A stretch of DNA of 64,000 nt from Eledone cirrhosa (Eukaryota): positions 156,674,001-156,738,000 of the forward strand of contig OZ024743.1 in the NCBI GenBank assembly GCA_964016885.1, written 5' to 3'. Shown in pieces: positions 9,037 through 60,412 of the stretch (position 1 is the stretch's first letter; every line of letters starts with the position of its first letter). The notes under the pieces were generated by a model that saw only the letters and a program-made list of their open reading frames with translations, was not told the origin of the DNA and did no database searches. The position numbers were made by a program, and so were the translations under genes.

Positions 9037-9500
9037 GCAAAAGTTTTATTTAAAATTGTTGGGTTACAACGGGTAAATATTTTATAACTGATATAAAAGC
9101 ACTCAACTGGTTTTGGAGTAGGTTTACGATATTAAACAAATGGAAACTATATTTACAAAACCATATTTATTTCATTATATATATTTCTGGGATATCATAT
9201 TAAAAATATTTTTTGTTTTCCTCAGACAAAATACAATATATAAGCCGTTTTATGAATAAATTTGACATACCTTAAAATAATGCAACTTCCATTTAAAAAG
9301 TTGATTTGGTAGCTACCAAATCAACTTTTTAAATGGAAGTTGCATTATTTTAAGGTATGTCAAATTTATTCATAAAACGGCTTATATATTGTATTTTGTC
9401 TGAGGAAGTCAAACCATATTTTTAATATGATATCCCAGAAATATATATAATGAAATAAATATGGTTTTGTAAATATAGTTTCCATTTGTTTAATATCGTA
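9037..9500. mobile_element. Family F fold-back HHR element: 376-bp spacerless palindrome 9125-9500 plus tail 9037-9124
   Basis: Symmetry centre 9312/9313 (GGTAG|CTACC). HHRs at 9392-9457 (+; TATTTTGT-CTGAGGA..GAAATATATATA^ATGAAATA) and 9168-9233 (-). (AT)n on both sides. Confidence 0.88.
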
Positions 9501-10464
9501 TATATATATATATATATATATATATATATATATATATATATATATATATATATGTGTGTGTGCATCGGTGTATGTGTGTGTACGTGTTTGTATACACGAA
9601 GTGGTTCCGTACAGCTCTAGTCGTTCCATTTAAGGATATTACAAAGAGTGCATGCGGTGAGATTAAAGTCTACGTGTGGTTAATGGCATTTGCATTGCGT
9701 AGATTGTTTATACTTGTATCAACTGCAAATATAATTCACATTAATTAAGTAATAACTATATGTATTACATAACTGGCCTCTGGAGCACAGCCTCTGCGGT
9801 TGATCACCCTCCTCAAAGGCGACTGTACTTGTATAAGTCGTTTGGTTAAACGACTCTATAAAGTCTAGTTGCTGACATACAATTAGTATAGCAGTTTCAG
9901 ACTAACATGTGACAACCCCCAAAGCGGATGTCGGTCTCAAACCGACCATTGTGAGTGAAAAACTTAGCGGAAAATTGAAAAGGTCTCCCTCGGGCTACTT
10001 ATGAAAAGAGCAGAGACAGACCTGCAAAATATGTATATAAATTGAACTAAAATAAATTAAAATGTTCAACTCATGATCAAAAGCAAGATAAAATAAAATC
10101 TGTTTACACGATAGTCGAAGAGAATCCATGCAGATCCGACTGAGAATTATTCAATGATATTAAAAGAAATGTAATTTAGAAATGTAAATGTATAACAGTG
10201 CACACATATGTTAACAGTAAGAACATGTTGCAAATAGTGATACTTGTATATCATATAAACCTGAATTGGCGACAGTTGGTGTTCCGAAGGGAATCGGGAA
10301 GAGAGTACATTTAGCAGAGAAAACTATAATTGAAATCAGTTATTATTAATATAACGTCGAAACTGTATATTCAAATGTTAAGATTTAAAATCACATAATG
10401 TACAGTAAAACAAAAGTTTCTATTAATGTGGCATATCAATTAATGAAACTTTGATCAAAGGTAA

Positions 10465-12150
10465 TTGTAATGAGAAAGCTACTGCACTTACCGCAATTCT
10501 GCCAACTCACTCAGCGAGCTAGGCTCATCCACGTCGATATAATACCTTCGCCAAGTTGCAGCTCGCAATTCGCACCTCCGTCCGTTGGGGGTTAGAGCCG
10601 AAAGAGGACTCACGGATGCTCCTGGGAACGCATCTCAAGTCACTTCCCCTTCCGCCTCCGGACGATCGACCCCAGCTTCCGGTTTCCTCCTCCACACCAC
10701 CACACCATCCCCATACGCCCCCCTGATCTCAAGGATCAATCCCCCCCCCCTCACACTGCTGCATGTGATAATCTGCCGTCCAGCCAGGCGGTCGGCAATC
10801 TCGATGCGATCTCCGTAATGTTGGGGCGGTGCTTTGGATTTCCTCATCCTCGGAGTCCGTCGACACAGCCACTCTACACACATCCAGGATATGACGTGGC
10901 ACTCCGGCCACGGACACGTTATTCTTGGAATTTACGGCCGTTACCGTTCCCTTTCCCCATTGAGAAGTGAAACAGACTTCTTCTCCCACCTGTACGAATG
11001 CGTTGTCTCTCTCCACAGGCCGTTGTGGTACAGTGCACGGGTGCTGCCACTCGTATCTGTATATTGTTCTGTGTGGCACCGATTCCTCAGCCTGTCCCAC
11101 CCGAGGGGACATGTTGTACGAAAACACTGCTTGCATTGGTAATATGTGCCGCCGCCCCTACATTGCTTTGATTGTGCGATGGTTTTGCAACACGATTCCA
11201 TTTCCGCTCAGCCTGTATGCTGCTCTGAAGAAGCAGTCCACCTTCCACCCATCAAGCATCTCCCTCAGCACCTCCGAGCGGAACGCTGCGTTGTTGTCCA
11301 TCAGCAATTCATCCACAGGGCACCGTTCCAAGCATATCTCTCTCAACGTCCGTGTGTTTTACTCCGCAGTTCCCGCCTTCATTTCCCTCCATGTACCCAT
11401 ACGTCCCGGTCCACAGTCAACCATCGAGAGGTATGTTACCTGTCGGTAGTGTGTTACGTCCACCGCCAATCGCTTCCAGTCGCGAGCCACCGGGAGACTT
11501 CCCGTCTCGTGCACACCCGGGAATCGATAGACTGACATCGGACGCAGTCTCTGTCCTAGCACGGCTCCTCCCTCCAACGCCACCGGCGGCTTCGCAGTCA
11601 ATCCGTACCCTTCTAAATGGCTCGTGACCTCCGCCGCCGACACTAGAGTCTCATCCACTAGGATGTCGTCGATGTAGGAATTGGTGGTCCACTTCATCTT
11701 GTCGGCCTTTCCCAGAATGGTCTTAAACACCGCCGCCATGATCTTCGGTGCAGAGTTCAGCCCGAAGCCGAGCCTGGTCAAGCAATATGTCCGACCCTTA
11801 CACATGACCAGCTCATACTGCCACTGCTTCTCCTCCACGTGTAGATATGCCGACTCTTTTGTTGTTATAGATGCCGAAATAGCTTGTAATGAGAAAGCTA
11901 CTGCACTTACCGCAATTCTGCTAGCTCACTCAGCGAGCTAGACTCATCCACATGGGTATAATATGTTCGCCAAGTTGCAGCTCACAATTCGCACTCCATC
12001 CGTCGCGGATAACAGCCGAAAAAGGGCCCACGGATGCTCCTGGATACTCATCTCACGTCACTTCCTCTTCCACCTCCGGAAGATCGTTCCCATCTTCCGG
12101 TCACCTCCTCCACACCACCACACCATCCCACAGTAATGCCGGCAGTGTAC
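10465..12150 (-). mobile_element. Internally deleted Ty3/Gypsy LTR retrotransposon
   Basis: Minus ORF 11359-11838 has RT motifs (YCLTRLGFGLNSAP, YIDD). Integrase core lies in 11158-11500 (LAVDVTHY, ELLMDN..AFRS, SGNGIV). Direct repeats 10465-10710 and 11860-12150 are the LTRs. A polypurine tract (G11 on minus, 10741-10750) abuts the 3' LTR; the 5' LTR ends ...ACAACA at 11860. Confidence 0.88.
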
Positions 12151-57795: not shown

Positions 57796-58183
57796 TGGAT
57801 TGGCAGTATCGGTAGAGGGTCGGACGCCATGCTTTGAAGCATAGAGTTACCTCCCTGTATGATCCGAGCTCAAATACCGCCGAGGTTAACTTTGCCTTTC
57901 ATCCTTACGGGGTCGATAAAATAAAGTACCAGTACTGCACTGGGTAATTGCTGGCCTTGTGCCAAAAAGTAGAAACAATTATTTTTATCCACCAGGGCGG
58001 TGGATTGGCAGTATCGGTAGAGGGTCGGACGCTATGCTTTGCAGCAAATATTTACGGCCCTTTATTGTCTGAGTTCAATCCCGCCGAGGTTAACTTTGCC
58101 TTTCACCCTTACGGGGTCGATAAAATAAAGTGCCAGTAATGTACTGGCTAATTGCTAGCCTTGTGATGAAAGTAGAAACAATT
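57796..58183 (+). mobile_element. Two tandem SINE copies (57796-57980, 57995-58183)
   Basis: Both carry the GGATTGGCAGTATCGGTAGAGGGTCGGACGC head, the central domain and the GTAGAAACAATT tail. Confidence 0.88.
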
Positions 58184-60092
58184 ATTTTTATTCGTCCCTA
58201 GTTATCTGGAGAACCCGGGTGGAGCGGTAGAAGAATTGATACAATTTAATCTCTCCTCTCTTATTATAAGCTTCTCTATAATTTAGTGACTACGTCAATG
58301 TTGCTTTTTTGATATATAATGTAGATAGATGCTCTGGAAACTAAGTAAAGCAATCTTAGTTTTTTTTTAATTCATTTAAACTAGATATGTAAGCACCGAG
58401 ATTAAACAACTCAACTGTTAGTCGATGCTGAGTTTTTATATCCATGAGAATTACAGGAACAGAAATGATTGGTCTCAAATATAGCATATATGCATGATAG
58501 CTGTGTTTGCATGTGTGTATACATGTGCTGGTGAGTAGCCAATAGAGTGTGTTATTTGTGTTTGTATACATTCGGACTTTGTGCTAATGTACATACAACA
58601 ATCACACATGTACACAGATATCAAATGTATACGCACATATTTTAGTAATCGAAGTTTTGAATTGTCCCCGCGGCAAACGATTCATCGAGGAATGTCACTG
58701 CAATCTATAGTGTTCTTGACAACATTTGGATTTAACGCACACACTTCTTACTAAATTAGTAAGGCCCAGCATTCGGACATGCACCCCAAAGCTTATGTAT
58801 GGGTAGAGCCAGATTTGAAGACACATTGGAAACAATTAACTTACTCGATAACTCAACCCTCAAGATATAGCAGTCAAGTCATCTATATAGAAGATTCTCT
58901 ATTGTTTTAATATTGGAAGTGCATATTGGATAACGTGATTCTAGATGTGTGGTACATACATCAAAAGCTTTCAATCATTTGATCATAGCTCTGCTCAATG
59001 AGAATTGGCCTGAAGTGAAATTGAAACACCAAAAGCCCAAACCACCATATATCTATTTGCCATACATATTTTAAAACGTACACATGTATACTTACATATA
59101 TCAAACGAAATTGTAAAATATCAGGCATATACATGGATATGAATTACATAAATACACACCTCAGCAACGAAAACCGCATAAATACGTGTTGCAAAATAAA
59201 CATTCACAGACAAACCTGTAGAGACAATTCAAACAAATCCTCTCATACGAACATAGACTAACGCTACACATTCACACAGACAAAATTAGATGCTGATATA
59301 CAATACAGACTTAAAATAAACAATATATAGATTCATAAAAATAGATACCCACAAAACTTCTAACACATGCACTCCTGATGTTCAATCAAACGAATAAAAA
59401 TAAATTTAGTAATTATTTTAAATTAAATTTCTCTGGGCCTCATTAATAATTGATTAAATATTTTCCACTTTAACATTTGTAGACAAACGTCTGTTTTTTA
59501 TTATGGAAGCTTTTTATACATTTTGTTTTTTATTGAAATTTATAGTAAATTAATACGTAGAAAAAACAAGCCAATAGGACAAATATAACATCGAAATATG
59601 TTTTCCATGTACAACAAATGTTAATGATATTTTCATATCTAAATATATTAAGTCTTATTATTTCGTTAGAAAAGGAAACAATAATAGTTTTAGAAGTCTG
59701 AAATTGCTCGTATATTTCGATTAATTGAAGTATAACAAACGAAAAATAGGGAAATGTTTAATTCCTCTGAAAGTGGCGTATTTTAAGTTATCCCAAACTA
59801 TTGATTTTAATAAGGAAATTAACGTTGAAAGACAATGCTTTTGTACCTTTATTAAAATTAGTTTCTCAACATTAATTTTGTCGATGAATATGTGGAGGAA
59901 AAGAGTCAACAATTCCGAAGAAATTCTTATTGATTGACTATGAAAAAATATTAAAAAAATTAAAGTACATTCAAAATACACAACTTCCCCAACGGTTTTA
60001 ATAATACGGTTGTTTATATATGTATGGATATATATATATATATATATATATATATATATATATATATATATATATATATATATATATATATA

Positions 60093-60412
60093 CAATGATA
60101 TTAAATAAATGGAAACTATATTTATAAAACCATATTTATTTTATTATATATATTTCAAGAGTACCAAAAGACATTGGTACGCTTTCTTCAGATAACATAC
60201 AAAATTTGTTTCATAAATAGAGACAATAGAGATAACATACAAAATTTGTTTCATAAATAGAGACATACCCAGGAAAATCATACCTTAACAGTTGGATATC
60301 CAAAGGTATGATTTTCCAGGGTATGTCTCTATTTATAAAACAAATTTTGTATTTTATCTGAAGAAAGCGTACCAAATTATTTTGGTACCCTTGAAATATA
60401 TATAATTATTAT
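60093..60412. mobile_element. Family F fold-back HHR element with HHRs at 60137-60199 (-) and 60350-60412 (+)
   Basis: Inverted arms around ~60283-60302 and a 40-bp duplication in the left arm. Plus HHR: TATTTTAT-CTGAAGA-AAG C GTACCAA..TTGGTAC C CTT-GAAATATATATA. Confidence 0.85.

Follow-up and report, generated by a model that had tools for sequence, protein, structure and literature searches.

Inverted pseudo long terminal repeats (pLTRs), one-sided tails and palindromes at inverted junctions are published traits of Penelope-like elements (PLEs) (PMC3846280, PMC8557442), as are pairs of hammerhead motifs on opposite strands and covariation in hammerhead stems (PMC4209133). Penelope elements of Adineta vaga have inverted pLTRs with a tail on one arm, palindromes at the inverted junction and an initiator (Inr)-like TCACT motif in the pLTR, and self-priming was proposed for them in 2013 (PMC3846280). 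For the Hydra clade, RWR and DKT motifs, a CxCX5C linker and a (TA)n target are described as defining features, and the origin of tandem and inverted PLE structures is called unresolved (PMC8557442). The protein of the PAc Poseidon PLE nicks and extends both target strands in vitro, with two internal reverse transcription starts that bound the tail and with hammerhead cleavage dispensable, in a study that leaves the joining steps open and has inverted products and the cap outside its scope (PMC11167929). Here we analyse a 64,000-nucleotide (nt) stretch of Eledone cirrhosa DNA (the window; GCA_964016885.1, contig OZ024743.1, positions 156,674,001 to 156,738,000) that holds a set of three head-to-head palindromes, copies 1, 2 and 3, which we call family F. 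Judged by its sequence, family F is the hammerhead-bearing pLTR of an abundant Hydra-clade PLE inserted in (TA)n. We propose that its head-to-head copies probably arise by twin priming from two start sites on a capped, uncleaved sense RNA, with local fold-back aiding the join.

We fetched 69 regions around the first 100 family F motif matches of contig C1 and mapped them on natural full-length copies. Copies end at two fixed 3′ sites, a short site (S) about 99 nt after the hammerhead core and a long site (T) about 88 nt further on. Among 46 inverted insertions, 44 combine one S arm with one T arm, leaving a single S+S and a single T+T case; the candidate reading that S+S pairs are common was rejected, as it arose from references that lacked the tail. 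The longer 5′ reach belongs to the S arm in 23 insertions and to the T arm in 14, with the two equal within 15 nt in 7, and in 23 of the 46 it is the shorter arm that carries the tail. Five T arms have their start at the S site or behind it and share no overlap with their partner, and a palindromic centre with at most 30 nt of spacer is present in 13 of the 46 (two false (TA)n centres excluded). In 36 arm pairs, left after removal of one of 37 rows that crossed insertions, the two arms of an insertion differ by a mean of 2.4 of about 161 nt, against a median of about 24 to other copies, and they share private changes. Because a folded complementary DNA (cDNA) can copy only what it holds, and the tail is on the shorter arm in half of the cases, two priming events are needed. 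The first-pass annotation of this stretch had proposed snap-back formation as a recurrent step of integration: inversion does recur, as the 46 cases in 69 regions show, while a single cDNA snapping back as the general cause is opposed both by the position of the tail and by the tail arms that have no overlap with their partner.

The 5′ ends gather at an Inr-like motif. A TCACT or CCACT sequence is conserved across the subfamilies, without exception, about 88 nt upstream of the hammerhead core, and when 120 arms are placed relative to its A(+1), 54 run through the motif, 28 stop at +1 to +9, 38 are spread over +14 to +85 and none stops between -9 and 0; the fold point of copy 1 lies exactly at +2. 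The fold-back points, which the first-pass annotation gave as different in each copy, are not scattered and cluster at the presumed transcription start. Genome-wide, in copies of one subfamily that lack upstream sequence, G stands before A(+1) in 63 (R-G-ACT) and the parental C in 37, and 183 have A or T there; the first 100 of these 183 comprise 23 A and 77 T, or about 42 A in all. Copying up to the RNA cap is a known habit of reverse transcriptases (RTs). We infer from these end sequences that TCACT is the transcription start and that the extra G would stem from reverse transcription up to the cap. In 7 of 20 fetched loci the G is unexplained by the partner arm, and both arms carry it in L219 and L238.

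A cDNA that reached +1 crossed the hammerhead, and its template RNA was therefore uncut. Counted for one spelling, 39 copies end at the predicted hammerhead cut versus 4,226 at S, and no arm starts exactly at the cut site in 36 extra loci, on which grounds we rejected hammerhead cleavage as the maker of 5′ or 3′ ends: the cut defines neither end of the insert. As a separate observation, two arms of L044, each starting at +2, are separated by a 14-nt spacer (L044:1185-1198) that was templated by the stem II region of the hammerhead.

In the asymmetric form of twin priming, to which we give an even chance, an S nick and a T nick would act with capped, uncleaved sense RNA and the cDNAs would be joined at the cap-derived base. 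Each strand of the self-complementary (TA)n target would receive a nick from the element endonuclease, and from these nicks two cDNAs would be initiated at different fixed sites of the RNA, one at S and one at T. Both cDNAs would extend towards the 5′ end of a likely capped, uncut sense RNA, and their 3′ ends would then be connected through a template jump or 1-3 nt of microhomology, in some cases by way of a short fold-back such as those in L096 and L073 and the one suggested by the copy 3 micro-palindrome at 60292-60303. A near-perfect palindrome would result if both cDNAs stopped at about the same place and a lopsided inversion otherwise, with the zero-spacer centre of copy 1 attributable to an end-to-end jump between cDNAs halted at the same base. 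The hammerhead would cut only as a dimer formed through its palindromic stem III. In L1 twin priming, credited to Ostertag and Kazazian (2001), two target nicks reportedly prime two cDNAs that are joined into an inversion; the second priming site is said to be variable there and the arms non-overlapping, whereas both sites are fixed in family F and the arms usually overlap to give palindromes. PAc Poseidon shares with family F the nicking and extension of both strands, the two internal RT starts bounding the tail, an uncleaved RNA and an AT-rich target, and differs in belonging to another clade and in starting inside the open reading frame (ORF), whereas family F starts before the ATG (PMC11167929).

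Several observations weigh against this account or limit its base. For PAc Poseidon no strand difference in start site was seen, and priming was observed without homology, whereas both family F ends abut ATAT-like bases (PMC11167929). T precedes ACT in about 141 copies and is thus commoner than G, and in 13 of the 20 G loci the partner arm could supply the G. The 14 insertions with the longer T arm and the 7 with equal arms fit snap-back equally well. The junctions were read by hand from BLAST pieces in one region of one contig, and the 46 inverted insertions leave out solo copies and partial inversions such as L055 and L068. Arms of one insertion are mutually closest in only 18 of 36 pairs, with 8 ties and 10 pairs that are not, so two RNAs from one subfamily could also have served as templates.

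The main competitor is snap-back or self-priming, in which one cDNA, or an antisense RNA as favoured for Adineta vaga in the available text of PMC3846280, folds back and copies itself into the second arm. We consider it unlikely as the general route. The near identity of the arms and the 13 insertions with palindromic centres speak for it, as do the true short fold-backs in L096, L073, L068 and copy 3, of which those in L096 and L073 span 16-24 nt and, as in copy 3, are followed by a jump, and the L110 junction with its 3-nt loop and 2-bp microhomology. Yet a strand cannot add a tail that it never held, which is what the shorter tailed arms and the five T arms without partner overlap would ask of it, and no loop is available at the spacers of 0-1 nt that lack a natural palindrome in copy 1, L083, L084 and L006. 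The extra G lies at a sense Inr, which indicates a sense template; the family F data favour two primed cDNAs on sense RNA where the Adineta study favours antisense self-priming. If the pattern of tails on shorter arms extends to the whole genome, snap-back is refuted as the sole mechanism; it may persist as one stage of the joining.

Improbable to a further degree is that two RNAs, possibly paired through the palindromic hammerhead stem III in a dimeric particle, each template one arm, a reading that is a variant of twin priming and not its opposite. Stem III does self-pair over 8 bp, PLE hammerheads work as dimers according to the available part of PMC4209133, the predicted state of a PLE protein is likewise dimeric (PMC11167929), L219 and L238 have the extra G on each of their arms, and the arms of copy 3 differ at 6 sites. 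The arms are, however, never of different subfamilies in the 36 pairs despite the many subfamilies that coexist, so that strict cis pairing would be required, and two RNAs alone leave the pattern of one S arm and one T arm unexplained. An artefact or later repair, through amplification, assembly or template switching in replication after insertion, is the least credible of the readings, and we give it very little weight. Its case is that public contigs and one restriction-site-associated DNA sequencing (RAD-seq) run, filtered and in short records, cover the family with no listed contig or read bridging the junction of copy 1 or copy 3 and with 60300-60305 uncovered, a point that also counts against twin priming, and that all four differences between the arms of copy 1 lie close together in a single T-rich run. 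Against it, arms stop at two fixed element sites common to thousands of copies and do not run into the flanks; private differences are present in the arms; public contigs, which may derive from the same sample, contain at low depth the private variants of copy 1, including the stem II of its right arm, and the copy 3 duplication; and the same architecture is published for other PLEs. Twin priming thus remains our preferred account of the inverted copies.

We analysed the hammerhead separately from the ends of the copies. A core pattern matches five times in the window versus none in 100 shuffles, four matches belonging to family F and one to another family. The first-pass annotation had placed hammerheads on both strands of each palindrome, and the motifs are present there, although nominally: one or two of the six are intact. 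Only 42208-42272 (+) is fully so, and 60137-60199 (-) in the minus arm of copy 3 has a single stem I mismatch; copy 1 has a broken stem II in each arm, copy 2 carries C3U in its minus arm, and the plus arm of copy 3 ends at about 60406 without the 3′ strand of stem I. A transcript across both arms would form one long hairpin that buries the motif, and the opposite-strand ribozymes are therefore a by-product of inversion. Single-strand folding energies, weak in copies 1 and 2 (z from -0.9 to +0.05, and -1.4 in the copy 2 minus arm) and better in copy 3 (z about -3), are not used as support. In an Rfam scan no hammerhead model matched family F at E<=1, and over the palindromes the scan returned just hairpin microRNA look-alikes, every one below the gathering score.

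Beyond the window, we compared 177 arms chosen by a pattern that permits few mismatches, with the copy 3 subfamily (1,935 matches) sampled deliberately. They have the type I layout of CUGANGA, GAAA and an NUH triplet with three stems: the core is intact in 169 of the 177 and GAAA in 173, the triplet being AUA. Stem II retains its C.C mismatch in 163 arms, its second pair is G-C in 85, A-U in 71, G.U in 13 and A.C in 3, and one distal pair is broken in 52. Relative to the minimal PLE hammerheads in the available text of PMC4209133, family F lacks the G10.1-C11.1 pair, the closing pair of stem II being A-U in 149 of 177 arms, A.C in 16 and G-C in 2, has no bulge after A9 and has a stem I of 8 bp. 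The A-U closing pair, the C.C mismatch and the palindromic stem III likewise set it apart from four Hydra-clade hammerheads with a monomeric 4-bp stem III (PMC8557442, available part). Among 62 distinct hammerheads, 96.5% of cells are paired versus 92.6% in shuffles, and double changes occur at three of the eight stem II pairs (G-C/G.U/A-U; A-U/G.U/G-C; U-A/C-G), amounting to 57 cells versus 16.7 in shuffles, a value reached in 0 of 500. None of the eight stem I pairs has a double change, substitutions there being one-sided (G.U to A-U, U.G to U-A). Stem II states track subfamilies on a tree built from the flanks (16 states, 19 changes), and there are thus few independent compensatory events.

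These results bear on what had been read from the window copies. The stem II change from AGG-C-ATACC/GGTAT-C-CCT to AAG-C-GTACC/GGTAC-C-CTT is exactly as it had been written, and N7 is indeed G, U or A. The stem I change is also visible, but it is one-sided, and the copy 3 strand quoted for it, ATAAAATA, comes from the minus arm. The further claim that the RNA structure was under selection stands as regards compensatory change in stem II between subfamilies, with few events behind it, and applies to source lineages and not to the copies in the window: the hammerhead fold is likely kept by selection in active source lineages, not in these copies.

Family F is abundant in the 3.0-Gb genome of its own species and is linked to a coding element. 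Exact matches in this genome number 27,346 for a 31-nt motif that covers stems III and I and 47,859 for a second motif, with 0 in reversed controls for either. An autonomous PLE sharing the tail of copy 2 (42315-42402) had been suggested as something to look for, and it was found: at locus L002 the tail continues into an ORF, and a search with the protein piece from this locus produced 38,865 candidates; the 111 that were scored each had at least 90% identity. L132 holds an intact 742-amino-acid frame with YRDD and IIY...YVG motifs, an RT-endonuclease. In 20 loci picked for long frames, the pLTR adjoins a long ORF in 19, and the frames contain RWR (RIRWRA) in 15 and DKT (KSDKTNN) in 17, the misses being mostly N-terminally shortened frames, as well as YRDD in 18, CxCX5C in 19, CxxC in 20 and a terminal CxH in 19. 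L132 has only one cysteine between its GIY and YIG halves, and CCHH is absent. The unit runs from a pLTR and tail through an ATG about 50 nt on, the ORF and a 3′ untranslated region (UTR) of 1.4-1.9 kb to a second pLTR, 3.7-4.2 kb in all, and both this partially tandem pLTR-ORF-pLTR order and inverted arms are present in L133-L152. Among Atlas neighbours of the ORF, which are animal proteins of this kind, HTH_animal, GIY-YIG and RVT_1 domains occur in shares of 18-99%. Pfam, Protein Data Bank sequence and phage searches with the ORF returned nothing significant, and with no significant Pfam match the assignment as RT and C-terminal GIY-YIG endonuclease rests on motifs.

In the available text of PMC8557442 the Hydra clade combines a single ORF, RWR (an RWK-like motif) plus DKT where others have DKG, a CxCX5C linker, C-terminal CxxC and CxH and no CCHH with a (TA)n target, a pLTR hammerhead, inverted 5′-truncated copies and a tail at one end, and family F agrees in each of these, its ORF following Hydra-1_Obim motif by motif in a comparison made by eye. 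The optional one-end tail of endonuclease-bearing PLEs corresponds to the roughly 88-nt tail that separates S from T, which is longer than the 30-40 nt given for Hydra elements. Family F also differs in copy number, which is in the tens of thousands, and in unit length, Hydra elements being mostly under 3 kb, a published tendency and not a diagnostic feature; its units are longer because of the 3′ UTR. Two other identities were rejected: a non-LTR retrozyme, as the copies are solo or head-to-head and part of a coding element and not head-to-tail noncoding tandem units, and a miniature inverted-repeat transposable element or other DNA transposon, as the 3′ ends are unequal, 5′ truncation is variable and there are no fixed terminal inverted repeats of equal length.

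The three palindromes in the window are real and lie where they had been reported, with the centre of copy 3 at about 60294 and not about 60290, and their independent insertion is supported; they are 80-86% similar to one another. Copy 1 (9037-9499) has 188-nt arms with 98% complementarity and four differences, and a centre without spacer at 9312/9313. Its tail-bearing arm (9037-9312, -) runs from +2 of the Inr-like TC(A)CT to a T end at 9037 beside (TA)n, with the tail between S and T at 9037-9125 (-) and a type I hammerhead motif with disrupted stem II at 9168-9233 (-); its short arm (9313-9499, +) runs from +2 to an S end at 9499 followed by (TA)n and has a type I motif with intact core and disrupted stem II at 9392-9457 (+). 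In copy 2 (42095-42403) the centre is a TTT spacer of 3 nt at 42203-42205, and the arms differ at two positions. Its short arm (42095-42202, -) ends at S at 42095 and holds the C3U hammerhead at 42136-42200, and its tail-bearing arm (42206-42403, +) ends at T at 42403, before (TA)n. In the latter, the intact type I motif at 42208-42272 (+) comprises the 8-bp stem I, CUGAUGA, stem II with its C.C mismatch, GAAA and a near-palindromic stem III, with a predicted cut after AUA at 42264/42265 (+), and the tail at 42314-42403 (+) is common to autonomous copies. Copy 3 (60092-60406) has a 16-nt spacer (60287-60302) and belongs to a diverged subfamily. Its longer arm (60092-60302, -, spacer included) has an S end, the hammerhead at 60137-60199 and a 35-nt duplication (60190-60224 and 60230-60264); its right arm (60303-60406, +) ends just behind stem III, with a partial hammerhead at 60350-60406. 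The perfect 12-bp micro-palindrome at this junction (60292-60303, no strand) may record a short fold-back before a template switch. (TA)n flanks copies 1 and 2 on both sides and copy 3 on the left only. All three copies are short, decayed, dead products of PLE insertion.

Other elements accompany family F. A second hammerhead family, with a long stem II, a palindromic UGCGCA stem III and the same stem I as family F, has a solo copy at 42610-42755 right behind copy 2 and an inverted pair within 50623-52578, one arm of which ends in (TA)n while the other continues through an ACTCCA tail; the motif CACTATCC lies upstream, and the architecture is that of family F. Related Hydra-type RT/endonuclease remnants at 19989-20772, 14676-15359 and 6824-7105, with 30-57% identity to the L132 protein, are located within or next to long inverted repeats at 19729-21103, 15545-17159 and 6005-8065. 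Minimal hammerhead-like cores with a short stem II recur at 46847, 47308, 47794 and 48286 (+), spaced by 461-492 nt like a tandem retrozyme, with dispersed ones at 3216 and 8545 (-). A canonical-looking type I hammerhead at 60834-60878, ahead of a (TA)n run, is the sole Rfam Hammerhead_1 match (29.1 bits, E 0.0047, below the gathering score), and a further core lies at 43482 (-). Broken frames at 38193-40957, with a YMDD RT motif and the look of a C-terminal restriction-like endonuclease, belong to what we take to be a non-LTR retrotransposon. Among the fetched loci, the L141 protein has many changes to Gly, Arg-like and Cys codons that suggest, at the protein level, clustered A-to-G hypermutation, and L011:125-2322 (-) holds a different PLE-like frame with a DKS motif and a long asparagine-rich insert that recalls the N-rich inserts in the available text of PMC3846280.

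The features first flagged in this stretch are thus known PLE traits. In the literature searched, which left most subscription papers outside, no counterpart was found for three points: that inverted copies almost strictly pair S with T while either arm may bear the tail, that a cap-like G is present, and that twin priming would explain PLE inversions. Family F has copies in the tens of thousands, a fixed pair of 3′ ends, a sharp boundary on the 5′ side and many ORFs that are intact. It makes the question of how tandem and inverted PLE structures arise countable in a genome and testable in vitro, and it argues that a hammerhead under selection does not set the ends of inserted copies. If true, asymmetric twin priming would account in a single step for the tail, the inverted pLTR and the palindromes at the junctions and would overturn the antisense self-priming model, and the family would be a genome-scale footprint of PLE integration.

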